A stretch of DNA of 64,000 bases from Macrostomum lignano (Eukaryota): positions 248,001-312,000 of the forward strand of contig NIVC01000996.1 in NCBI GenBank assembly GCA_002269645.1. The letters are read 5' to 3'. Below are positions 48,785 through 64,000 of the stretch, one piece after another (within the stretch, counting starts at the first letter, position 1; each line of letters begins with the position of its first letter). The notes beneath the pieces were generated by a model. The model did not search any database and was not told the DNA's origin. It saw nothing but the letters and a program-made list of their open reading frames with translations. The translations under genes and the position numbers were made by a program.

Positions 48785-50299
48785 TTTTTTAAATATTGAT
48801 TTATTACTTACTCAAATTTCAACTTTACTACTGGGAATAATAAGTAATAAGTAATAAGTAATAAGTAATAATAATAGTTTGCATACAAAAACTATTTATG
48901 CACTATTTTTTTAATTTTGAGTAGATCAACAAATTTCAGTGCAAAACTATTAGGAAATCAAACCATTAATTTTGACTTTTCTGGTCAGACTTGTTGCCTG
49001 AAAAGGAATGAAAATGTAAGACTGGTGGTAAGGAATTTTGCAATATAAGTTTTATTTTAGGCATCTTATAAGCTGTGAATTAGGTGCAAGTTAGAAATCT
49101 ATTAAAAAACTACAGAAAAGTTTAAGACTGCTAGAAAGTCCTAAAAAGAGAGAAAAAATTAATTATTGCTAGTGCCATTAAACTCAAAATTTCTCTAAAT
49201 ATGAAGCATAAGCAATAAGATGCATTGATTAATTCTAAATGCCAAAATACCATCAACCAGAGTGACTGATATAGAAGCCACAGCAAGTCAACTTACCTAA
49301 AAGGTCGCCTAGCAAATGAATGATGACTTCTAGTTTTTGATTGTTCCAGAGCTGCAAGATGCATTTGCATGAAATAAATATTTTTTGTTTCTATATGAGA
49401 AGTTTTTATAACTTAGGTCAAATTCCTAACTATTCTATACAGCTATAATAAAGTTGAAATAAAACCTAATCTAGGGTCTCATATTATTCAACAAAATAAT
49501 TCTAGCATTCTGAATTAAGACCCTAGACTAGATGCCATTTAACTTATATTATATATTTTTGTAATCATTTTACATGAAGTATTGATAATCTTATAATTAC
49601 TGGGACTCTTGATATGCTTTGAAAAATTTAAATAATCTATAAATAGTCTGCACACTTCTGCAACTGTTATGGGTCAACAAGGCATATATTAGCCAGCAAA
49701 CTAGAAGATATTTGGCTTGGGCCTATATTAATGAAAAAATAAAACATGCATATAGATTGTTAAAGAATTTATAGGCATTTACATTATTTAAACAAAATTA
49801 AGAAATTTTAATCAATTCAAATTTTTGTACTATGAATAAATACATAATAATTTAATAAAACTATATATGCAACTTTGGTTCCACACAGTAAAAACTGCGT
49901 CAAATACTGTGTTGATATCTGTTGCACATTTCAATGTGAAATTCAACTTGAAATTCAATTCAGGATTTTCCCGCACTAAACTAGAGTTCTTAAGCCTATT
50001 CAATATAGAATTTAATGTGGGATTCAATGCAAGATTTGCAAGATTTTTTTAATGTTGGGATAACGTCAAATGTGCTTTGGGTTAGGGCACTGAACTTTCA
50101 TGGCTGCCTAGCAGAGAGGGCATGCTTAAGCAGCTAGAGCTGAGGCCATGAAGGAGTTGAAGCACTAATCAGACCAAGGCTACAGCAGACTGGCAAAGCT
50201 GTCGCTGCATCTCCCTGTCTGACTGGCTGCTTTGTGTCAATGTCTGCAGCTTCGAGTGGAATGCTTGCCTAGCTGTTCTGTGTGTACACACCTTCTGCC

Positions 50300-53200
50300 A
50301 CGCAAGATAATGAGGCTCAAGTCTTCTTCAAGCACTCTCGGAGCAGGTGGAGATGGCGTAGTATCACACAGTGGTCATCTTCAAAAACCTGAATTCAATT
50401 TTGCTTAGGTCCAAGTGGTCACTGTTTGTGACACTGCACAAGAATGACAATACTAAAGTGCTGGAGGACTTCCTGGAAAGGCATGACATAGTGTTGGCAA
50501 GCTCGCGAACTTGTAGGGCTACAAGCAGAGGCGGAGGAATGCACTTGGCCAGGATGCAACATGGAGCCAGGCACAGGTTGATCACGTGCTTGTGCATCTT
50601 TGTGAGCGCCGCCGCGCCATCAACTGCTATACTATCATGCCGCTGGCTCTGCAGTCTGACCATTGGCTTTTCATCTGCAACCTGCATCTACACAATCTGC
50701 TTTACTGTCTACCAAAGTGGCCTCTGCGGAGCTTCTATTGTGCACTTAAGGACACCCAGGCGTGTTGCCATTTTGTCAGCACTTTTGTCAGCATGCCTTG
50801 CAACAAGTGCAGGTGTGTTAAGTATATGGAGGTAAGTGCTACAGTTAGAGCAAGCAGTCCCAATGATGCAATTGGCCCAACAAAGGCAGCTAGTCTGGCA
50901 GGATAACCTTGCAATGCAAGCAAGGGTAAAGCAGGAGAGGCTCCATCTTAGCAGTTGGCCAAACCACAAGGCAGAGGCTCTGGCAGCTGTCAACCTGCAG
51001 CAGAAATAGGCCACTGTTGATGATGCTATCCAGTCCACCGATGCTGGAACTAACACCAAAGGGTGCGGGGCCTGGTTGCCATCAACACTCTGACAGGTAG
51101 AAGCTGCGCATCCCACTCAAACTGGCTAGCAACAACTCTAGATGAGCATTTTAGAACAGGCATGGCTAGAGATTCAACCTCCATGCTGCCCTACTAGCCG
51201 ACCCAGGGGTACACATCCTGCTAGGTCCACATAGACAGACTGGGTAATGGTGCCAGTCACCCTTCTGGAGAAAATTGGCCTTTGGCTTTAGTTGTTAAGG
51301 GTACAGATTTATCTTGGTGTACTTACCTATGCATAACCACCTTCACCTCCCTTGTGGACTACTGCTCTAACTGTAGATTTGAGCTGCTAGTGGCGGGGCG
51401 ATGTCAATGCCCCAACACTCACTGGGGCAGTAAAACTTCAACAGCAGAGGCCAAGGAACTCCTTGCTTACCACTGCACTACCAATACTGAGTTTTTTAGC
51501 ATTGGTATATAATAGCCCATGCGAACTCCACTGGTTACAGTTAGAACTTTACAAGAAAGCTTGAGCGATTGCAAGTCAGCGCACGCATATATATATATTT
51601 AATGGGTATAATGTAGATTAGTATAGGATACACGTACACGCAAGGATGAGCAATCAATGAGGTGCACACTTAAGAAATAACCAATGTGCCCATGCAACCC
51701 TACATTCAAGCAACCCCAAGAACACCCAAGATCAGTCCAGTGGCACTTTGGTTGTGGAACCCCCATCTTTGACAATGGGCAATAGATAGAGGCCTATGAC
51801 ACAACCCTTGTCTCCCACAGTTTGGCTCTTCTGGTCAAGGACTAAGGGTATAGGACAAAGAGGAGTCTCTGTCTAACCATCACTTTGTTCATTTTTGGTT
51901 GCAATCCTCTTGCTTCAAGCCTAGCATCCTATGGAAAAGGAACATCTGGAACTCTGACTAGACGGCTTTCACTGAAACCCTGAAATGCCAAATAGATCAG
52001 CTGACCACTAGCGTTCCTACCACCTAGCTGTCACGAAGTGGATGACCTTGCAGACTTTCTCAGCACAACTGTTTTGATAGCCCATGAAGCCTCCAATCAA
52101 GGCCTAAAAAAGCAATAAATCCACTCTTGGTAGCACCCAGCATTTAGATCCCTCTGGCATAAGGCAAAGTGCCTTCAATGGAAAACTTGCAAGAGCAAAG
52201 ACCCTGCTTATCAGTATGCAATTTGTGACTTTAGGCGTGAAACCAGGAAAGCCAAGTCTGACACATGGCACCAATATTGCGTGGAGTTTGAAGGCAGGTC
52301 TACTCTACTTCACATGTGGTTAAGGCTCTCACCCTCAACAAAATGTCAAAGCTCTCAGTCATTAAAAGACCGGATGGCTAGCTTGCTGAGAACCCCAGGG
52401 AATCACTGGACATCATGCTTACCAGCTCTTTCCCATGTGCCACATGGTAGCTAAACCCATTGGACCACTCTCTAGGCAGACAGATCTTGGCTTCAACCAT
52501 TATTACCAGAGAAAAGATGGCTCACACGGCAAAATCCTTCTCTCCTTTAAGTCACCAGGACCTAACAACATTTATCCTGGCTTCTTATAAGAGGCAGTTG
52601 AAAATAACTAGTTTTTTGACCTCCTCTGTAACCTCTTCAAGGCTAGCATTATGGGTCCTAAAATTCTGGGGCACGCATGAGAACCTTACTTGCTGGATAA
52701 TGCATATGCTATCCTATTATACTGCCAACTTGCATCTCCTAAAACACTCCCACTCTGTGGAGGTCCAGAAAGGTAGACTGCAATGTGGAGTCCTTAGCCC
52801 AATTCTCTGGAACTTGGTCATGGACGAGCTGCTTTGCAGCCTGTAGCCAGACCCAGTTTAGAAGGTTGGTTACTTGAATGATATTACTGCCACTGTGGCT
52901 AGACCATTACCCACGGTCCTCAGAGACCTCCTCCAAGCCTTCATCCACTGTGTTGAATGCTAGGCATACAGCTGCAGCATCAGGTTCTTTGAGTCTAAAA
53001 CCGTGGCTATCATGTTCACTAGTTGTTGAAATTGGAGGATCGAATTGCTCTCCTTCTATGGCAAACCTGTTGGTAAAACAAACCAGATATCTGGGCATCC
53101 CCCTTGACCACAGGTTGAGTTGAACCCACATGTCCAAACCAAAGCCCTCAAAGCTCTTGCAACTCTTGCATAGATCTGCAGAGCTTTTGGTGCTATGTGG

Positions 53201-53300
53201 GGTCTCATCCCTGCCCATGCAACAGTTGGCCAATCTGGCTGACTGATTTGGCGGCCAACCAAGGTAAGTTGCAAAAATGCCTACTTTAATAAATACCCAA
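50300..53300 (+). mobile_element. Degenerate non-LTR retrotransposon (R1/LOA-like RT, APE endonuclease remnant)
   Basis: Fragments QSDHWLF (endonuclease SDH, about 50650), GRLQCGVLSPILWNLVMDELL (about 52770-52835), VGYLNDI (YADD equivalent) and TRYLGIPLDHRLS; many stops and frameshifts; boundaries approximate and may be composite. Confidence 0.7.
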
Positions 53301-54077
53301 GTAGTACTAAGTAGAGGATGAGGCATTTTTCCTTAAAATGATAGTCATAGTGACTCTTGCCATTTACCCAAAGTTGCATTAATTTTGCTTTAGGGTTTCT
53401 TTCATATGTAAGTCGCATTTTTGGCCAAAAATGACATAGCACTTTTTTAAAACTAAGTCACAACCAACCAAATTTTGGAGGTTGCACATATATGCCCCCA
53501 CCATCTCTGGTAGATTTACACTGCCATTATAAGACCGGCCATCTTCTTTGCCAACTATTACAGGCATTAAGCTAAGTGCCAACTTGCAAGTCTAGCTAAG
53601 TAGCCAGTCATGGATAAACAGCAAGTGTGGCCAAGTTAGGTGGTCTAACTTCTACTACTCTCAGACGTGCCTGTTGACCTTCTGCCTTTATCAGGGCTTT
53701 ACTAAAATCCTGCATTGAATTTCATATAGGCCTATTGATCATCCTGCATTAAATCTCACATTAAATTCACTCTGAATACTGCATTGAATAGGCTTAAGAA
53801 CTCAAGTTGAGATTAAAGCGGGAAATCTCTCATAAAATTCTGCATTGAATCCTGCATTGAATTCTACAATGAATTCTGCATTGAATAGGCTTAAGAACTC
53901 AAGTAGCCAATAGCCAATAGTGCAAACAGTGTCTAGTATAGATTGGCCCTTAGTAGTCCAGGCACAATTTGGCATATTGGAGTATAGTTTGCATGAGAAA
54001 TGGGAATGTTAATGTCTAGTGCAGTTTAGAACTTGGCTAGGCCCTACAATAGGCTAGACTAAGGGAGTTGCTACATA

Positions 54078-54703
54078 GGGTACCAGTTGTTTTGGTGACA
54101 AATAGTTGTTTTGGTGACAAGTTGCTATTGTGATAGACACACTTCATTTTCAATGAAAAATCAAAGATTTTATGAGTATTATCATTTTAGTGATAAGAGG
54201 TGTTTCATAATATTTGGTTGTAGTTATTTTGTTAAGATTTATGTTTCATAATATATATAAAAATCTTCATCAAAAGAATATATTTAAGAAAAGAAAGCAA
54301 ACTGATTATATTGTTTTCTTCCTGTGCAGATTGTTTTGAATTGTCCCAGAGTGTTCAGACACATAAACCATAAACCTATAGAGAATCCTCATGAAATGCA
54401 GACCACGAGAAAGGTGGATATATTCACTTGTTGATGCTTTTGCAAGTTTAAATTGGAAAACATAATTCAAAAGACTGCAACTCTATAATTGTAAATAAAC
54501 AAAATTAAATACAGAAATACTTAACTGTTTTAAAAACTATAAATTTTAGGCTCAATATGCCTTAAGATTTTCTAAGTAATTTTCTGTTTAAAAACAGAAT
54601 CGCTATAACTAAAATTGTATTTTTCTTGTCACCAAAATGACTTCTGCTTGTTACCAAAAGGACTGTCATCAAAACATCTTGTCACCGAAATGATTGTAAT
54701 CCA
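54078..54703. mobile_element. MITE-like element with subterminal TTTTGGTGACAA inverted repeats
   Basis: Left GGGTACCAGTTGTTTTGGTGACAA, right TTGTCACCGAAATGATTGTAATCC; flanked both sides by CTACATA (54071-54077 and 54704-54710), a 7-8 bp TSD candidate. Confidence 0.55.
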
Positions 54704-54710
54704 CTACATA

Positions 54711-54835
54711 TACCCTCAATTACCCTAGCTAATGTTGGCACCTATGTTATAGCTAGGTGAACTAAAGCAATGCAGAGTTAAGTGTCTTGCTCAAAGACAC
54801 AAATTGTTTCAAATGAGTTGAGAATTGAACCTAAC
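54711..54835 (-). mobile_element. CORE-SINE fragment, diverged
   Basis: GGTGAACTAAAGCAATGCAGAGTTAAGTGTCTTGCTCAAAGACACAAATTG matches the 21431 copy; GAGAATTGAACC is the reverse complement of a B box. Confidence 0.7.
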
Positions 54836-55275
54836 TTTTTTGTCATGAGTCAAATGCTTTTATTAAGATACATTATGTCTATTGTCTAGATTTCCATATA
54901 AGACTTTTTGAACTTAAAGTATATAAAAAATTCTAATTTTTTAATTCCTTTAAAACTTTTACCAGACATTTAGCAAGTGGCCAAAATGAAAAAATGGCAA
55001 TAATGTACAAAAATAAGACCTGTCTAACTTTTTGTGGTGTTACAAGCTCAATTTTTTAATCCCAAATAAAGTAAGAAAAGTTGTGAAAAATTGATGTTTC
55101 TAAATACAAATATGGTGAATTAATGCCCCACTTAGGCCTATAGGACATTGACCTCAAGTTGGTTATTTCCTAACATCCAAAAATAAAATGAAAACGAAAT
55201 TGCAAAAATTCTGCATAGATAGCTGTGCCTGTAACTGCGCTGAGCACTGCACATATCTTCGCATTTGTTTCCCGA

Positions 55276-55655
55276 GGGTCTCCCTAAAACACGCCCCGCA
55301 CCGCCTTGCAGCGCTACACATTAAAACAATTTTGAATATAACTGAAAACACTTCAAAATGCTTTTTCTGTTAAGCTTCGAAGTTTTTATTAAATTAAGTT
55401 TTTTTACTTTGAAATATAAAATTCAGTGAATAATAAGTGATAATAATATTAATATTAATAAAAAATTGATAATATAATTTAATAATGAAAACGAGAATAT
55501 AAAAAATAATAATAATATTTATAATATTAATTTAAGATATTTATTCCATTACTCGAACAACAAATAGTTTTCTTTGCAATCAAATGCTGCATTGACAAAA
55601 AATGTTATAATGTGTAGCGGTTCAGGGCGATGCGGTGCGTGTTTTAGGGAGACCC
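55276..55655. mobile_element. Mutator-type (MULE) MITE, 380 bp
   Basis: 48-bp TIRs (55276-55323 and 55608-55655, 43/48 identical, starting GGGTCTCCCTAAAACACGC) and exact 9-bp TSD GTTTCCCGA (55267-55275, 55656-55664). Confidence 0.85.
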
Positions 55656-55772
55656 GTTTCCCGATCGATATTCAGATTGATATTCGAAAACTAACAAAAT
55701 CTCTGCTCTGCAAAAATATTTTAGAGCCCGTTTGACAGAAAAAAAGTGCAACTAAGAACATTGCAAAAATAA

Positions 55773-56022
55773 AGTTTCAGCTCGATCCGTTACTCTGGCT
55801 CGAAATGGCACCGATTTTCGATGTGCTCCCATTTAAAATACATGTGATTTTATAAGGCAGATCGATATTCGAGTTCGCTCACTTTGGCTTGACCATTCAA
55901 CATGAATTTTACACACTAAAAATTGCAAACCAGAAACCGATAAATATACAGTTTCAGCTCGATCCGTCACTCTGGCTCGAAATGGCACCGATTTTCGATG
56001 TGCTCCCATTTAAAATACATGT
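55773..56022. repeat. 73-bp direct repeat pair (55773-55845 and 55950-56022)
   Basis: AGTTTCAGCTCGATCCGTYACTCTGGCTCGAAATGGCACCG...AAAATACATGT, one mismatch. Confidence 0.9.
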
Positions 56023-56233
56023 TAAAGTATAAATAAAAGGTGGCTGTGTCTGCATATTTATTGACTGGCGAAACTCAGATTTCTGGTTAATTGAGTGCGC
56101 GTTGGGATGTGCTCGAGCAGGGGGAAGTGGATAGGCTGGGTGGGGGTTACGGAGTGCAAACTGAGTGCCCGAACTGCCTGCCTGCGCATGCTACAGTTAC
56201 TAAATGATTACCGAACACCGTGTCCATTTGCAG

Positions 56234-56917
56234 GATTTAAGTCAAATATTTGTTCCGGTCTTACACGGGTCACATATTTATCTAATTGTGATTTGCGGTG
56301 CCAGCAGAAAAATTCTAATCCTGGACTCACTGAAAAACTGAGCCGCTGCAATTCGTCAACTGAAGCCCATAGTTCATCGATGGAAGTAGGTAAACCATTT
56401 GTGTCGTATAATTGCACCTACGAGCTACTGTACGCTCGTACAATGTGCTGATTAACTTTTTGCCTGTAAATTTACTTGCTATTATGGACCATAAAGCCAT
56501 GAACGTCCATCCATATACTAAAAATCCGGTACTTAAAATATTCCGCTAAACTACATTTCATACTCCTGCAGACAACTCCTCGATTCGAATGTCGTCGCTG
56601 CATTCGTGGACCAAACAGCACCTGTGTTCAGAAGCAGCCCGGTGACTTTTGAGCCAGATACTTTGCCACGGACCATGCAGAATGACGGCTATAGCTGCGG
56701 TGTGTTCGTCTGTCTGTATGCCACGGCTGTTGCAACTGGATCACCGCTACACTTCAGAAACGACACAGGATCCCTAAAAAAGTATAGGTGTCACATCTGG
56801 CAGGTTATCCAGAATTACAGTCAAGGAGGAAGCCAGGCGACCTGCAGCACGTGCAACAGGATGGTACCTGATGCTTGTGCTAGAAATCGGACGATTGACT
56901 GGGTGGGTAGCAGCTAG
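56234..56917 (+). pseudogene. Ulp1/SENP-like (C48) cysteine protease fragment, spliced, with premature stop
   Basis: Exon 56234-56385 DLSQIFVPVLHGSHIYLIVICGASRKILILDSL (His, Asp; TGA at 56339), GT-AG intron 56386-56571, exon from 56572 with QNDGYSCGVFVCLYA (oxyanion Gln and catalytic Cys). Confidence 0.7.
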
Positions 56918-57237
56918 TACGCTTGCTATATTGACTACACTTTAAAGGCTTTACGAGCGTACAATAGTTATGCTACTACGTAATGCGCAGATTGTTGTTG
57001 ATTTTGGAGGTGAGGTGGGTGTCAGAGCCAATGCAAATTCAACGCCTATCTAAATACATTAGACCGATTCTAATTGGTCCAGAGTCATTATGTGAGACAT
57101 TTATACTCTCATGTAAAATCTATACATGTAATCAGTGTATCGTACAGCAGCGACGAGTACAATATAGTACGCATAATTAGCGCTTCGCAGTTGTTGTACG
57201 TAGAAACGCGCGCGCTCCCATCCCCGCACAATGCAGC

Positions 57238-57480
57238 ATTGGTGTACGCAGAATTAACTGTCCATATTAACTGTCCATATACCAAAAATTGACAGAATTA
57301 GAGCGCCCACCCCATAACTGTCCATATTATTACTTGTCCATATTTACTGTCCATCCCAAAATTGGTGTACGCGCAGAATTGTAGCGCCCGCCCACCCCAT
57401 AACTGTCCATATTATTACTTGTCCATATTTACTGTCCATATATACACCCAAAATTGGTGTACGCACAGAATTGTCTGTGA
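57238..57480. repeat. Short tandem repeats (TAACTGTCCATATT, CCAAAATTGGTGTACGC), probable Polinton subterminal/TIR region
   Basis: About 8 copies of ACT(T)GTCCAT and 3 of ATTGGTGTACGC directly upstream of the viral ORF cluster. Confidence 0.65.
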
Positions 57481-58156
57481 CCCCCACAAAATTGGCGGCC
57501 CCACGCGGAGGCATGATGAGTCAGTCAGCCAGTAAATCGCCGCTGTTCACCCCTCTGCCCTGCGCTGGCTGCTATAGCTACCTGCAGCAGTGTTACGCAA
57601 CAACCCGGTCGAGCCACAATGCTAACTTTATAGCCAGACACGTCATGAAGGTCTGAAAACACAAACTTCTATGCATGAAATATTCTCGTTTAACAAGATG
57701 CCAAACCAACTTTGTTCAGACAGCAAACTATAAATAAGAAAATTTGGATTCTCGGCCGTTTATCTAAATTCACCAAGTTCAATTAACACCCCAATCATGT
57801 GGAAAACGCAATGTTTGACAAGCAATTTTTGGTTGCCAAAGCACAAGAGGATCAGATCGACAAAGCATGAACTGCCAACAACTTTGAGCAAGGATTTCAA
57901 CACACCTCCAACGCCAACACCGAAAATAGGTACAAAAGTCTCTTTTTTTCTGGAATCCTCGATAACGACAACACCGTAAAAAGCTCGTTAACATGTAATT
58001 AAAACAAAAACTTATTGAGACTCTCGGGTATATAAGCACCAACCCGGGGCACCAAGCACCCGTACCTGCAAATTTTTCTCGGATTCTCGGCAGTTTTTCA
58101 AGCTCGAATAACATCCCCACCACTAGTGCGAACAACGCAGCAGTGCTTGACAAGAA

Positions 58157-58693
58157 ATGAGCTGGATTTCCAGAGACTACCCCCTATTATCGAACGAGGA
58201 AAAAGACGAATATGAGGCCTTGAAAAAATCTGCTGACTGGTTGTGCATTTGCCACAGCAAACCGATTTCCGAGCGATTAGTCACCTTCAATGCCAAGGTC
58301 GAGGAAATTGATCAAGGCCCCTACGACAGCCAAGACTACGCAGCAGCCAGGATAAATGAGCAACTACGGGACAAAATGAGATTCAAAGCTGATTTAGCAC
58401 GAATGGAGAGATTACTGGCTCCGATACTAAGTGAAGAGCATCGCCAAAAAATACGTTTTCGGAACCATCAAGATCTGTATAATCCGTCGTGGGAGGAGCA
58501 ACAAAAGATTTGGAATTTTTGGCTGCCAAAGCACAAGAGGAACAGGCCGCCAAAGCTTGAACTACCAGCAACTTGGAGCAAGGATTTCAGCACACCTCCA
58601 ACGCCAGCACCCGAAAATAGGAACAAAAGGTTCATTTTTTCCGGAATTCTCGATAACGACAACTCTGTAAAAAGCTCGTTATCGTGTAATTAA
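58157..58693 (+). CDS. Polinton hypothetical protein (true C-terminus possibly frameshifted)
   Basis: ATG-started, helical E/K-rich N-terminal two thirds; preceded by GGTATATAAGC at about 58028. Confidence 0.55.
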   Translation: MSWISRDYPLLSNEEKDEYEALKKSADWLCICHSKPISERLVTFNAKVEEIDQGPYDSQDYAAARINEQLRDKMRFKADLARMERLLAPILSEEHRQKIRFRNHQDLYNPSWEEQQKIWNFWLPKHKRNRPPKLELPATWSKDFSTPPTPAPENRNKRFIFSGILDNDNSVKSSLSCN

Positions 58694-58788
58694 AACAAAA
58701 ACTTATTGAGACTCTCGGGTATATAAGCACCAGCCCGGAGCATCTGCAAGCGCCCGTACCTGCAAATTTTTCTAAACAGACAAGAGAC

Positions 58789-59541
58789 ATGGAGACAGTG
58801 CAAGACTTCAACTGCGTCAAGCGAGAGCTGCTGGCACTCAAACCGCGAGGTCCGAGCTTCAACGGGGTTGAAACGTTTGACATTGAATATGACGAACAGG
58901 GACCTCTCTACTTGGCCAATGCGGTCCCTGTTTTGATCGTCAAGGGCGTGCGTACTGACAACGAAGGTCGCGAATTCATCATCATTGCACAAAAACACAT
59001 TGAAAGCTGCATACCCTACACTTTCAACACTGTGGCGGAGCACCTTTCCAGCGAAAGTCTAGCTCTGCTGGGCTACAACCCAGCGTTTGGAGGTGACAGT
59101 GCAGCGTTTGGGCTGGCTCACGACTTTAAAATGTACGACCAAAACGGACTGCCTGTAGAGGATTACAAAAACAAGAGCGGCTACTACAGGATTCTGTTTA
59201 CTCTCGACACGGCCGTGATTCGAGACGCTGTTTTGACCGCAATGCCAAAAATTCAACAGCTACAGTTTGTCGAAGAAGCCAAACAGGCATTCGATCGTTG
59301 CTATTGGACGCCACCTCCAAAAATCAAGGTAGGCGTCAAGAAAGTAAGCAAGAAAGCAAAGAAACCACCAAAGCTTGTCAAGGAGAAGCAGCCAAAGGTG
59401 CCTAAAAATCAGGCCAGAAAGCGACAGCATCAATCGAAACTAGTAGCAGCCAACGAATCAAAGAAGCGGTCGAAAGCCCCCAAGAAGGATACGAAAGTAA
59501 AAACTGCCGAAAAATCTACTTGCAGAACGTCGAGTGTGTGA
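58789..59541 (+). CDS. Polinton protein, candidate T7 gp2.5-like ssDNA-binding protein with Lys-rich tail
   Basis: 250 aa; segment MYDQNGLPVED...SGYYRILFTL...PKIQQLQFVEE parallels recalled T7 gp2.5 VVDSKGKKMED...GSKLKVKYSL...LQLESVMLVE; preceded by GGTATATAAGC at about 58718. Confidence 0.55.
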   Translation: METVQDFNCVKRELLALKPRGPSFNGVETFDIEYDEQGPLYLANAVPVLIVKGVRTDNEGREFIIIAQKHIESCIPYTFNTVAEHLSSESLALLGYNPAFGGDSAAFGLAHDFKMYDQNGLPVEDYKNKSGYYRILFTLDTAVIRDAVLTAMPKIQQLQFVEEAKQAFDRCYWTPPPKIKVGVKKVSKKAKKPPKLVKEKQPKVPKNQARKRQHQSKLVAANESKKRSKAPKKDTKVKTAEKSTCRTSSV

Positions 59542-59644
59542 ACCGAGTGTTTTGCGCGAAATGGAGCCGCATGCCTGACTTGGACTGGGCGAGCGCACGG
59601 ACATTTCGCAGACCAAGAGCTCTTATCAATTTGCGAATAGGAAA

Positions 59645-59998
59645 ATGTACAATCAACTTTTTTCAGCGTTCTTTGTCTGCAATTGTATTCGGTTGTCGCT
59701 CATCAACCAAGTTTTGCGTCTTTTTCCTCAATGTAAACCAATTTCTGTTGTTGTTACCACTAGTACTTACCGCGCTGAAGTAGACAGATGGCCAAACTTT
59801 TTCCAAATTGCATACTCCGGGTCCCGCTGGGTGAAGTGGGAGTGTGAAGTTTTCAATGGAATAGTAATAAAGTCTCCATTTCGCAATGCTAAATGTTTAT
59901 TATGCGGAAAGAATGGCCGCCTTGTTTTCCTTGGAATACGAAACTTTAAAGAGCTCTGTCAAATGTACGATCATGTGACTAGCGTTTTGCATGTCTAA
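59645..59998 (+). CDS. Polinton hypothetical protein
   Basis: 117-aa ATG ORF filling the gap between viral genes; an in-frame ATG at 59561 is cut off by TGA at 59576. Confidence 0.4.
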   Translation: MYNQLFSAFFVCNCIRLSLINQVLRLFPQCKPISVVVTTSTYRAEVDRWPNFFQIAYSGSRWVKWECEVFNGIVIKSPFRNAKCLLCGKNGRLVFLGIRNFKELCQMYDHVTSVLHV

Positions 59999-60138
59999 TC
60001 CATGTAGCTGTTGCGTAACTTTACTGCTTTACCACTGTACCGAATTTGTATGTACGTACAAGCTGCTATGAAATTGTCTATAAATATATTGTGCATAAAT
60101 TGCAGTGCACTGCAACCAACATCTTTTTGCTAAACAAA

Positions 60139-61143
60139 ATGACAAACGGAATCTCCAGACTATGTTCTTGTCGCGGCGAGCTCGCAGAGCTCGCCAAAGC
60201 CCGTCCCACTCTTCGGCGGGCCATTATTCGAGGTGCAGGCAAGGAACTGATTCATTGTCTCTGTGAATTGAGTCACAACGTGCTCCGGGGAAATATCGAT
60301 CTTTCTCCGAAACAGTATCTGCGATTAAAGCGATACAGAAGATCGTTGCGTGAATTGGCAGACACAAAATTGTCTATAAATAGGAAGAAGAATATGCTTC
60401 TCTCGAATCCTCAAGTCGGTGGTTTTCTACCCATCCTTGCATCTGTTGCTGCACCGCTAATATCAAGCCTGTTTGGCGGACTACTCGCTAAAATGAATAA
60501 ATACGTTGTTGTACCAGAAGAAGAATTTAATAGACTAAGTCAAGGCGCACCCCGAGAAATTGCATCCAAAACAGAATATGAAAAACTCATTGAATACAAC
60601 ACTCAACTCCAAAATAAACTAAGTCAGATCAAGCAAAAGAAGAGTAATCGTTTTCCTGAACGACAACAACGTGTTTGGGACATGCTGACAGAAAGATACC
60701 CAAATTTGGAGTACAACAAGTCGTGGGAAATTGTATTTGATGGAAAAACCTGGCCAGGAAGCAATATTTTCGATCTATTGAAGGAGATTACATCGAATGA
60801 AAGGCGCGACCGCCCAAGCCCAAAATATAGTACCGCTTTTTGGGCCCTGGCCGAAGAGGCAGATATTGCAAAAGCTCTACTAGGACGACGCCAACAAGAA
60901 GAAGTCAGTGTGAAAAAAGAAGTCGGCACGGATCCGGATCGAGACGATTTTTTAGTCGAGCAAGCAATTGGAACTAATGATTTCTACAACGACTTCCACA
61001 AAGACCAAGCCAGTGGCCTGAATGAAATTAAAAAATATGAAGATCGTGGCAGCGATGCCTACAGGCATGCTTCATACCAACTTCGCGAACCAAAGAGGCG
61101 GCAGAAACCAGCAGTAAAATACGAGACGTTAAAAAAACTATAA
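60139..61143 (+). CDS. Fused Polinton conserved proteins: basic N-module ending QVGGFLPILAS plus GSNIFDL-motif protein
   Basis: ELIHCLCELSHNVLRGNIDLSPKQ..LKRYR..LR.LA..K.S...K and DGKTWPGSNIFDLL are motifs I recall from Polinton accessory ORFs; likely start 60139, internal ATG 60493. Confidence 0.75.
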   Translation: MTNGISRLCSCRGELAELAKARPTLRRAIIRGAGKELIHCLCELSHNVLRGNIDLSPKQYLRLKRYRRSLRELADTKLSINRKKNMLLSNPQVGGFLPILASVAAPLISSLFGGLLAKMNKYVVVPEEEFNRLSQGAPREIASKTEYEKLIEYNTQLQNKLSQIKQKKSNRFPERQQRVWDMLTERYPNLEYNKSWEIVFDGKTWPGSNIFDLLKEITSNERRDRPSPKYSTAFWALAEEADIAKALLGRRQQEEVSVKKEVGTDPDRDDFLVEQAIGTNDFYNDFHKDQASGLNEIKKYEDRGSDAYRHASYQLREPKRRQKPAVKYETLKKL

Positions 61144-61280
61144 ATAGAAATCATTTTCATGATATATAATCTGTTTTTGGATCATGGGTGCCGCAGCTGT
61201 AACTTCAAAGCTTTGCTCAGACAAACCGTCTGTGGAGTTCAAGTGTAATTACTCATGCTGTGCATCGAATCTAGTTGCGA

Positions 61281-62338
61281 ATGAGGGTGAAAACCGCTCT
61301 TCGGAGAGTGTACGAACAGGGGGACGCCGCTTTTACAAATGCTGCCCGTGTATATCAGGAGGCCAAACGGCTGGTCCCCTCCCTGACGAGACGCCAAACA
61401 GACGAATGGCTGAAGACCCAATCGAGCTACACCCGGCACAAGAGGGTTAAAAGAAAATTCCGAACCGGAAAAGTAATGTCGGGAGGCTTCATGGAAACTG
61501 TGCAAGCGGATTTGATGGACATGTCGCGATACGAACAATGGAATGATGGTCATCGATATATTCTAGTTGCAATTGACGTGCTTAGTAAATTGGCTTTTTG
61601 TCAGTCAATAAAATTGAAAAGCGACACTCCAAAGGCTTTTGAAAGCATGATCAAAGACTTCCCCATTAAGCCTTTATATCTACACGTTGATCGAGGTACC
61701 GAGTTTTATAACAATCGCATGCAGAACTTACTGAAAGCCCATAATATCAAAATGTACAGTACAAACTCTGTATACAAGGCAAATATGGCTGAAAGGCTGA
61801 TTAGGACTCTCCGAAAACGTTTAGCTCGCTACTTTGAGCATAAAAACACGTGGCGTTGGATCGACTATTTGCCAATATTGGTTAAAAGTTACAACAACAC
61901 AGTACACTCTACTATTGATATGAAACCTTCGAGTGTCGGTCTGCACAATCAAAAAGAATTGTGGGAAAAGCTCTACAAGGATCCTGAATATGATGAACCA
62001 GTTTACCAAAAAGGGGACTTTGTCAGAATTTCAAAATCTCGTCGAGCCTTTGACAAGGAAGCATACGATATGTACAGCGAAGAAGTTTACGTTGTGTCTC
62101 AAGTATGCCCGGGACCGCCTCATTTTTATCGCATTTCCGACCTATCTGGAGAACAAATCGAGGGTCGATTCTACTATAATGAACTTTCAAAGACGGTTCG
62201 ACCGACCGCTTTGTTATAGACAAAATTCTGCGTCGCAATGTCATCATCAATGGTGTCGCTCATCATTTCGTTAGTTGGCGCGGCTATCCCGAGTCGTTCA
62301 ATGCATTTGTACCAGTTGAGGAAGTTATAAATATAAGA
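61281..62338 (+). CDS. Polinton retroviral-like (rve) integrase with C-terminal chromodomain displaced by a -1 frameshift near 62203
   Basis: DDE triad QADL / HVDRGTEF / AERLIRTL; main frame stops at 62219; the -1 frame 62210-62338 gives FVIDKILRR...HFVSWRGYPESFNAFVP. Confidence 0.92.
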
Positions 62339-62381
62339 CAAGGATGAACACACATACACTCGAAACGTGTAGTATATTACA

Positions 62382-63536
62382 ATGCATCTATTCCTACCTA
62401 GCAATGCGTGCGTTGAGCACTATCCTGAGAATAATTCGGCACATTATAGCATTAATTTGCCCGACACCCTCCACTTTCCGAATCATGAAGTCTGCATCGA
62501 ACGGATCTACTTTTGTAAAGAATTCAAAACCGTCCCCGATAATCGAATGGTTGATGTCCTGACCAACGCTCCCGAGGATGAAGTGATTGACATTGAGGTG
62601 AGAGAAAAACCCGCCTCCACGTATAAACAGTTTGCGTCGGTTTCTCTCGCCGCGGGGCTATCAACAGCCAACGAAGTGGTTGATGCAATCATCGCCGATC
62701 TAAAATATGAGCAAGACGATAATGCGATGATTTGCATTGAGCGTTCACAGGAAGGCCAAATTTCAATTGTGAACAAATCATGGTATGGTGCGAACATTAG
62801 GCTGTCCAGTAATGTGCGTAGCATGTTTAAAAAGGTTGATGACGCTGGAAATAAATCAAATATCGAAGTAACGACTTTTTTATTAAACCCAAGAAATTCG
62901 TTAGTATTCGCTATAGAATTGGAGTCCTCCTCCTCCATAGAGAGTCCGATGACTCTAACGTTTGAAAAGAGTGTCTGGCCTTCTAGAACGTCACTGCGGA
63001 TTGCTAAAGGATTCTACCGCACGCCTGATGAGCTCTTAAATTATGTTAATGGAGCGCTTTGGGGCGTCGTTTCAAAGCTCCCAATAAGTCCAGCGACGAG
63101 AGTGGATGCATTCCGCTACAACCCTTTTCTGAACCGGTGTGAGTACAAACCCATTGAAAACATTTTATTCGACATTGGAGAGCTTGCTGCCATTCTCGGC
63201 TTTCGCGAAGATGTTTTCAATGAAACTCCAAAGACCGCTAAACGACCAATCGATTTAACAAATGGTGTACAAACTATGTACATCTATTCAAATATTGTCG
63301 ACTCTGCCATTGTTGGAGACGTCAAAGTCCCCCTGCTTGGGGCAATTCCTTTGAATGAAAAGGTATACGGCGAACGAGAGTACTACGAGTTTGTCAATCC
63401 ATCCTACTTACCGTTGGTGAAACACCCATTCAAAACCATTGAGGTGCAAATCTGTGACGATATGGGCAAGTTAATGGATCGGATTCTTCGAGGCAAAACT
63501 GTTTTATCGATCAACATTCGTGAAATTAAGCTATAA
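62382..63536 (+). CDS. Polinton minor capsid protein (penton)
   Basis: N-terminal LFLPSNACVEHYPENNSAHYSINLP and C-terminal MYIYSNIVDSAIVGDVKVPLL...FVNPSYLPL...TIEVQICDDMG match the recalled Polinton minor-capsid pattern. Confidence 0.88.
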   Translation: MHLFLPSNACVEHYPENNSAHYSINLPDTLHFPNHEVCIERIYFCKEFKTVPDNRMVDVLTNAPEDEVIDIEVREKPASTYKQFASVSLAAGLSTANEVVDAIIADLKYEQDDNAMICIERSQEGQISIVNKSWYGANIRLSSNVRSMFKKVDDAGNKSNIEVTTFLLNPRNSLVFAIELESSSSIESPMTLTFEKSVWPSRTSLRIAKGFYRTPDELLNYVNGALWGVVSKLPISPATRVDAFRYNPFLNRCEYKPIENILFDIGELAAILGFREDVFNETPKTAKRPIDLTNGVQTMYIYSNIVDSAIVGDVKVPLLGAIPLNEKVYGEREYYEFVNPSYLPLVKHPFKTIEVQICDDMGKLMDRILRGKTVLSINIREIKL

Positions 63537-63580
63537 ATAAAGAAGTTTTCACGAATAAAAGGTAGCAACTGATCGACAAT

Positions 63581-63949
63581 ATGCCTTCAATCTTGATCGG
63601 AGGAGCTTTACCGGTATTTTCCGGTGCACAGCGCGGCAACGGCCTGTTTGGCAGCATTGCCCGATTTGCCCTGCCAATTTTAAAGAGTTTTGGCAAAAAT
63701 ATTCTTCGCCACGGAACACGAGCCCTAGCTACAACAGTTAGCGACACACTCGATCAAGGCGGGAACTTGAAAGAAGCGGCATTGCGTAACTCTGTCCAGG
63801 CAGCTAAAGATGCTTTCAAGGACACAGTCGCACAACGAGGTAGCGGCAGACAAAGACGAAGAAAGATGACTAACAAAAAAACGAGAAAAAGACTGCAGCA
63901 TTCTGATATTTTCGACTCTATAAATAAAAAAACCCGTGCCAATAACTGA
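63581..63949 (+). CDS. Polinton basic core-like protein (QRGxG motifs)
   Basis: PVFSGAQRGNGLFGSIARFALPILKS, second QRGSG, Arg/Lys-rich tail; LIGG-A fits the adenovirus protease consensus. Confidence 0.75.
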   Translation: MPSILIGGALPVFSGAQRGNGLFGSIARFALPILKSFGKNILRHGTRALATTVSDTLDQGGNLKEAALRNSVQAAKDAFKDTVAQRGSGRQRRRKMTNKKTRKRLQHSDIFDSINKKTRANN

Positions 63950-64000
63950 TCTGTCTATTAGAGCACCACACTAAGCCGCTGTTGAATGAAAAATGACTGA

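Follow-up and report, generated by a model that had tools for sequence, protein, structure and literature searches.

Can a Polinton-type element that carries no DNA polymerase be a functional unit, and if so, what replicates it? The question is raised by the end of a 64,000-nucleotide stretch of Macrostomum lignano DNA (hereafter the window, G000:C996:248,001-312,000, in an assembly of 764 Mb and 5,269 contigs), where the left 7.0 kb of a 10,212-bp element, here assigned to family A, are located. An earlier note, made from the letters of the window, had taken this element for a near-complete Polinton/Maverick, with a truncated relic as the alternative. It is neither: the element is a complete, amplified Polinton-type insertion without the polymerase gene pPolB, and not an autonomous Polinton. 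As a single unit it fails the Polinton definition, and it works like half of one. With a probability of roughly 0.7, it represents the capsid-integrase segment of a two-segment (bipartite) Polinton, split long ago and complemented in trans, whose likely polymerase resides on a separate family with matching ends, F7.

Complementary gene sets on separate elements

Family A and its sister family B are marked by the left-arm gene orfB. Scoring of all 89 candidates gave 70 orfB loci, of which 31 are type A and the other 39 are type B or partial; haplotig duplicates with identical flanks inflate this copy count, which the earlier note had proposed. A copies are 96-99.5% identical in DNA, with a synonymous divergence (pS) of 0.01-0.05, in agreement with the young multi-copy insertion that had been proposed. 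The gene-bearing A copies measured (n=11) span 9.8-10.4 kb, and a 6-bp target-site duplication (TSD) flanks nine of them, the window copy being without, as well as three further copies. Their gene order is orfA, orfB, orfC, orfD, orfE, integrase, penton-like, core-like, major-capsid-like, protease and ATPase, the last adjoined by the right terminal inverted repeat (TIR). The major-capsid-like, protease and ATPase genes expected beyond position 64,000 are thus present, but the replication gene expected with them is not, since the right TIR directly follows the ATPase. Family B elements (~10.5 kb) show the same gene order, 88% capsid identity to A and no pPolB. Two extra genes without counterpart in A are found in their left arm (L056 2,918-3,697; L053 443-796), a Fic-domain protein (PF02661, E 7e-14) and a protein of 117 amino acids (aa) without assigned family.

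No pPolB lies between the TIRs of the window copy or of any fetched sister copy. In the 58 fetched A/B loci, none proper to these families was detected with six canonical pPolBs as queries, a search in which F6 scored 53-74% as positive control, and nothing was found with the F7 polymerase exons as query. A hidden Markov model (HMM) built from two canonical pPolB open reading frames (ORFs) matched nothing, F6 and F7 included, and was dropped as a control in favour of the F7 exons. One pPolB beside an A copy, on contig C2787, was rejected as a candidate, being part of an unrelated Polinton with AGTAG ends that sits between orfC and orfD of that copy; this nested element (L083 4,481 to L090 5,065) is complete, belongs to another group and has its own 6-bp TSD. 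Neither is a helicase or primase-polymerase encoded by family A, where every ORF is accounted for, none having the necessary size or a match to a Pfam family of this kind.

The reverse gene content is displayed by families F7 and F6. One family of ~9 kb with ACTAC ends and without structural genes first surfaced among the PF03175 matches, and two families of this kind proved to exist. They comprise 44 and 53 loci, respectively (all 114 candidates scored), and mostly measure 8.7-10.1 kb. Their pPolB is spread over several exons, which divide but preserve its exonuclease and polymerase motifs. It matches PF03175 at E 1e-20 (5,921 library representatives matched), and barely the six canonical pPolBs of this genome (E of at least 0.01). 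Spliceosomal introns of the polymerase are common to both families, and a 78-base GT-AG intron is skipped in three of three putative RNA runs, from three studies, but not in a DNA run. HMMs for integrase, capsid, penton, protease and ATPase gave no match at E<=0.01 in six of six F6/F7 elements, with A/B controls at E<1e-50. Although without integrase, all five complete F7 elements and 11 of the 12 complete F6 elements are flanked by 6-bp TSDs, and that of the twelfth fits if one extra terminal triplet is counted. A PC4-like ORF (E 0.001) occurs in F6 copies and in one F7 locus, and in none of the other F7 loci searched. Several F7 and F6 elements are clustered on contigs C157, C471 and C513 of G000, possibly as repeat-silencing clusters.

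Given that A has integrase and capsid genes but no polymerase, that the 9.5-kb F7 shows the reverse, and that their ends match, the two are likely mutually dependent halves of one virus-like genome. A second pair, B and F6, with equally complementary gene sets and terminal sequences in common, would descend from the same ancient split. A physically linked capsid and polymerase element was not found in the assembly (70 orfB and 97 F6/F7 polymerase loci), and a capsid and a polymerase locus lie on the same contig in only two cases, with 42 and 172 kb between them. Three ORF-less palindromic elements of 7.6-8.7 kb have an A-type TIR joined to F7-like body sequence (~73%). Palindromic dimers were also observed (G000:C1313:243,600-257,950; C4430; C3085; C2274), in which two capsid-like genes (C1313) or two polymerase exons face each other within one locus.

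Hypervariable termini shared within family pairs

Bases 1-5 read ACTAC in A, B, F6 and F7 (A ends read ACTAC...GTAGT), while the canonical pPolB families whose ends were located all start with AGTAG. Bases 9-25 are hypervariable and free of indels in all four families, with a TTTT run near base 28. Diversity in this block is 0.38 in A, 0.46 in B, 0.36 in F6 and 0.44 in F7 (41, 27, 34 and 14 distinct ends compared, respectively, those of A including ORF-less elements), and the sequence just inside it is nearly invariant (0.009 in A, 0.000 in B). In the one AGTAG-ended control family, 15 of 22 ends are identical and no diversity excess appears at bases 9-25. Such diversity might be due to balancing selection on old alleles, to escape from host factors or to error-prone early elongation.

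Left and right ends of one copy usually agree, and end haplotypes are block mosaics. When the first 20 bases are considered, A and F7 have two haplotypes in common and B and F6 six, with none in the four other pairings; mean nearest end distances are 3.7 for A-F7, 2.2 for B-F6 and 11.7-13.0 for the remaining pairings. The end of the window element itself differs at 3 of 31 bases from three different F7 ends.

Single-end gain (C1201, C150) or loss (C1329) of an ACT triplet was observed at L238, L074 and L137, one of them an A end; single-triplet gain or loss is the pattern expected from slide-back protein priming. Three insertions have an intact TSD but two different terminal haplotypes (L116/L117 on C4635, L149/L150 on C1070, L146/L147 on C175), which implies recombination before insertion.

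The same termini could arise from one-way dependence, A being replicated by host enzymes or by an external large DNA virus and F7 being a parasite that copies A ends to borrow integrase and capsid. The SSB-like (single-stranded DNA-binding) protein of A, whose closest predicted folds come from large DNA viruses, would suit such a scheme, no A gene has been shown to need pPolB, and the variability of the ends could stem from an arms race of A with its mimic. Nevertheless, the ends of A are of linear type and retain a short terminal repeat, the triplet changes at three ends fit slide-back priming, A has no helicase or primase ORF, and the pairs have co-diverged to synonymous saturation, all of which makes one-way dependence unlikely.

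Age of the proposed split

Comparison of A with B over natural ORFs, pairwise, gave pS of 0.66-0.92 and nonsynonymous divergence (dN) of 0.07-0.50 in 11 of 11 genes, with the lowest dN (0.07-0.14) for the capsid-like, protease and ATPase genes. Synonymous divergence between the two families is saturated, yet purifying selection acts on each of the 11 genes that they share, and the absence of pPolB does not stem from recent loss. A similar divergence separates the pPolBs of F7 and F6 (64% identity, pS 0.72). The phylogeny proposed by the earlier note for integrase and major capsid was run for the capsid-like protein, and places A/B with two outside homologues in a clade of their own (100/99), to which none of four pPolB-bearing families from the genome belongs. 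Other datasets contain capsid homologues at 78-80%.

These results bear on a different origin, in which both kinds of element arose independently, by deletion, from a full-length Polinton that the assembly lacks or that occurs solely as an external virus. In Pieris, mobile Polintons without pPolB are reported alongside intact relatives (10.1101/2025.02.07.637071), one canonical family here includes copies with internal pPolB deletion (L107-L108 on C593; L111 on C424), and the assembly is fragmented. Against this, only 140 bp separate the TBP-like (TATA-binding protein) gene from orfD, with no pPolB remnant there, A and B layouts are alike, and no linked copy occurs among the 70 and 97 loci. 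Moreover, both halves have been under purifying selection across saturated divergence, and the polymerase introns common to F6 and F7 differ from the intact vertebrate Mavericks, which are reported without introns (PMC8097293). A near-identical complete parent was not found in the genome (98 of 539 candidates scored), the next capsid-like relatives with pPolB, those of canonical Polintons, being 27-35% identical and in another clade. Independent deletion is quite improbable. Loci of relatives were absent from the viral and metagenome contigs searched, and the names of homologues P0001-P0010 and P0024-P0025 are uninformative.

A putative two-segment cycle

If A and F7 are segments of one bipartite Polinton, F7 transcripts would yield terminal protein and pPolB, which would initiate replication at the ACTAC ends common to both segments. 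Family A would contribute the SSB, capsids, protease and ATPase, its TBP-like factor would serve the TATA-led late genes, and its integrase would insert both segments. The N-terminal parts of the F7 polymerase were assigned by eye as putative terminal protein and OTU, the reported pPolB domain order being terminal protein, OTU, exonuclease and palm (PMC11161782). The two molecules of 9-10 kb would be packaged separately, this being the least supported step. Co-replicating molecules could swap terminal sequence via the paired TIRs of displaced strands, by which ends would be homogenised and exchanged; such swapping would explain both the shared mosaic end haplotypes and the chimeric elements. 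End exchange through paired TIRs during strand displacement is known from adenovirus.

Element sizes and capsid conservation speak to whether particles are part of the cycle. Complementation might be intracellular only, polymerase and integrase being traded for transposition while capsids carry A alone or nothing. Mini-elements of 3.2-3.4 kb with F6-type ends (L232/L231 on C251; L234/L239 on C190) have 6-bp TSDs, so that a size of ~10 kb is not needed for insertion. Yet the capsid-like, protease and ATPase genes are the most conserved, and most polymerase elements and ORF-less chimeras measure 7.6-10.1 kb despite a coding need of ~4 kb, as a packaging limit would give, which leaves the purely intracellular version highly improbable. 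The fullest form of the two-segment reading, a true two-component double-stranded DNA virus with separately packaged and integrated segments, two co-diverged pairs and partner identity kept via a hypervariable terminal 'barcode' of fixed length under constant exchange inside each pair, is put forward tentatively, at somewhat less than even odds.

Several observations weigh against the bipartite assignment. Exact sharing is thinner for A-F7 than for B-F6, with one full 27-base haplotype, located on an ORF-less element, and a sample of only 14 F7 ends. Past base 31 the A TIR resembles F6 and not F7, so the pairing is not strict; this likeness suggests past exchange across pairs. An unsplit relative could have been missed by the capsid search and by the PF03175 search (91 of 974 candidates scored), although the orfB and polymerase-exon searches scored all candidates. 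The splicing evidence concerns a single joint among several predicted polymerase introns, no joint being listed for the others, and the runs are RNA by conjecture. Neither Pfam nor PDB gave a sequence match for the capsid-like protein, a candidate double jelly-roll protein, its identity and that of the penton-like protein coming from sequence comparison, and the window copy itself is damaged. Finally, the bipartite Polinton is deduced here from genome sequence, no trans-action, particle or extrachromosomal molecule having been observed.

The window element and its genes

The features are as follows (positions in the window).

55259..56974, strand not assigned: left arm of a separate high-copy foldback-type repeat enclosing the window copy, mirrored after the right TIR; outside the Polinton segment
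56975..64000, +: family A capsid/integrase element, left 7.0 kb of 10,212 bp (G000:C996:304,975-315,186)
56975..57550, +: left TIR, ~575 bp, with tandem subrepeats inside, starting ACTACGTA
56975..57005, +: terminal 31 bases, with invariant ACTAC, fixed-length hypervariable block (positions 9-27) and conserved G(A/G)TTTT; predicted replication origin and integrase site
57729..63926, +: ten TATAA(A/G)(T/C)A boxes, none on the - strand
57824..58079, +: 260-bp duplicate (88%) of 58,514-58,773 (orfA end and the TATA box after orfA)
58157..58693, +: orfA, 178 aa, no known family, 62% identical to family B, dN/dS ~0.13
58789..59541, +: orfB, 250 aa, predicted T7 gp2.5 / ASFV CP312R-type single-stranded DNA-binding fold, lysine-rich tail
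59571..59998, +: orfC, with weak likeness to TBP, 142 aa in sister copies; frame of this copy broken near 59,700
60139..61143, +: orfD (118 aa) and orfE (216 aa) of sister copies, fused here into one 334-aa frame near 60,480
61281..62347, +: rve integrase, 355 aa in sister copies, weak C-terminal chromodomain, PF00665 E 2e-8
62382..63536, +: penton-like (putative minor capsid) gene, 384 aa, with 28-31% similarity to its counterpart in other Polintons of the genome
63581..63949, +: basic core-like protein, 122 aa, putative label from motifs
63993..64000, +: start of the major-capsid-like gene, 427 aa in sister copies, in three pieces beyond the window here

As the earlier note had described, the ORFs are intronless and co-oriented on the + strand, and its integrase is confirmed by the Pfam match. 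Its penton and core labels remain provisional, as they derive from position, weak similarity to other Polintons of the genome and motifs. The literature search gave no paper tying the label F54H12 to Polintons. Less accurate was the description as nearly all open: relative to sister copies, frames are broken near 59,700, ~60,480 and ~62,200, the last removing the C-terminal end of the integrase, and two further breaks leave the major-capsid-like gene in three pieces. Some of these breaks may be assembly errors. Contigs of putative RNA runs, DNA possibly included, cover the element.

The SSB-like gene that had been placed in the left arm is supported at moderate strength by fold search. In a comparison of the orfB model (pLDDT 63), three viral SSBs rank 1-3 with modest Z values: African swine fever virus (ASFV) CP312R (Z 5.4, root-mean-square deviation 5.0, 144 aligned), T7 gp2.5 (Z 4.6) and Enc34 (Z 3.3). 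Large-virus proteins are also on top in BFVD; Foldseek against PDB returned nothing, and Atlas no usable match for orfB and weak unrelated matches only for orfA. For orfC, TBPs make up 13 of the 15 matches at E<=10 (best 0.054), its model being poor (pLDDT 41) and the TBP ranking weak (Z 4.1). In canonical families other than the one with pPolB deletions, ORFs that by eye look TBP-like, nucleoside-kinase-like and dUTPase-like stand beside pPolB. Homologues of orfD are present in pPolB-bearing Polintons of the same genome. Beyond the window, the protease (149 aa) has a profile matching the ASFV S273R protease (E 5e-11) and invariant H, D, Q and C residues, as in adenain-type cysteine proteases, and the packaging ATPase (216 aa) contains Walker A and B motifs and is 29-40% identical to ATPases of pPolB-bearing Polintons here, with weak Pfam NTPase matches.

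TATA boxes are located 49-74 bases upstream of the orfB, orfD, penton-like, core-like and capsid-like starts, and in A as well as in B several TATA-type boxes precede gene starts by 43-74 bases. Base shuffles gave 1.0 box expected and a maximum of 5, for a pattern picked after seeing the sequence.

Comparison of the flanks of copies placed the left end at 56,975 instead of 57,240, where it had been set, and the right end 3.2 kb past the window, the ends reading ACTACGTA at left and TACGTAGT at right. The matching right TIR was found as an inverted copy 9.4 kb downstream of the repeat first proposed, and the same paired ends occur on at least 17 other contigs. A 6-bp TSD, also anticipated, is missing from this copy, whose flanks are inverted copies of each other because it is enclosed by the foldback-type repeat. 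The inverted copies are perfect over the 300 bases adjoining each end, so the Polinton segment may have travelled as cargo of this repeat, which has an apparent 9-bp TSD at 55,250-55,258. An extended 'TIR' of 1.9 kb, with an Ulp1 fragment and the 9-bp TSD, was rejected as element end, being part of this separate repeat. The repeat (55,259-56,974 and L001 6,187-7,518) holds 178-bp subrepeats and an Ulp1-protease fragment (PF02902, E 0.03), and its arm is interrupted at 55,276-55,655 by a 380-bp miniature inverted-repeat transposable element with 58-bp TIRs and a 9-bp duplication. The reported CpG richness relative to upstream DNA is maintained against 50,001-55,250 (observed/expected 1.05 in 56,975-64,000 vs 0.22), but not against the 1.7 kb directly upstream, the foldback arm, which is equally rich (1.08).

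Comparison with known systems

Like Polintons/Mavericks (adintoviruses), family A has an rve integrase with chromodomain, capsid-like and penton-like genes, a cysteine protease, an ATPase, TIRs of several hundred bp and a 6-bp TSD, and its partner pPolB matches PF03175. Unlike in Polintons, the two defining genes, pPolB and integrase (PMC5499653), are on separate elements; the ends of all four families are ACTAC and not AGTAG/5'-AG; the F6/F7 pPolB has introns; and the elements reach roughly half the length of 13-25 kb that is usual for Polintons (10.1101/2023.08.22.554363). The polB-lacking Pieris polintons resemble A in being TIR-bounded, pPolB-less and still amplifying; there, polB was lost beside a transposable element insertion and is retained in highly similar complete copies (10.1101/2025.02.07.637071), while in the case of A the loss is ancient, complete relatives were not found, and there is a polymerase partner that lacks a capsid and whose ends match. 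Matching segment termini and a polymerase on one segment are also reported for the segmented, pPolB-encoding bidnaviruses and Vesanto virus (PMC8502044, PMC8363768), which unlike A/F7 have single-stranded DNA, a parvovirus-type capsid and no integrase, whereas A integrates and has Polinton-type morphogenesis genes. Polinton-like viruses without pPolB and Tlr1 share with A a Polinton-type capsid module (PMC11161782, PMC11296320), but replace pPolB by a helicase or primase gene in cis, A having no replacement replicase. No bipartite Polinton was found in the literature searched, outside of which lie most subscription papers and supplements, which could hold cases.

Both the definition of Polintons and the search for them rely on pPolB and integrase occurring together in a single element. 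Published screens require the two genes within 20 kb (10.1101/2023.08.22.554363, 10.1101/2024.01.15.575659), so that a split form would be thrown out as a fragment. A stable split would show that one element can provide another in trans with protein-primed replication and integration. It would also provide a double-stranded DNA parallel to the segmented bidnaviruses, in which the origin of segmented genomes could be tested from fossil copies. The terminal block, with a diversity of ~0.4 per site beside nearly invariant sequence, would be a natural readout of which molecules replicate together, and may point to the origin bases that matter.

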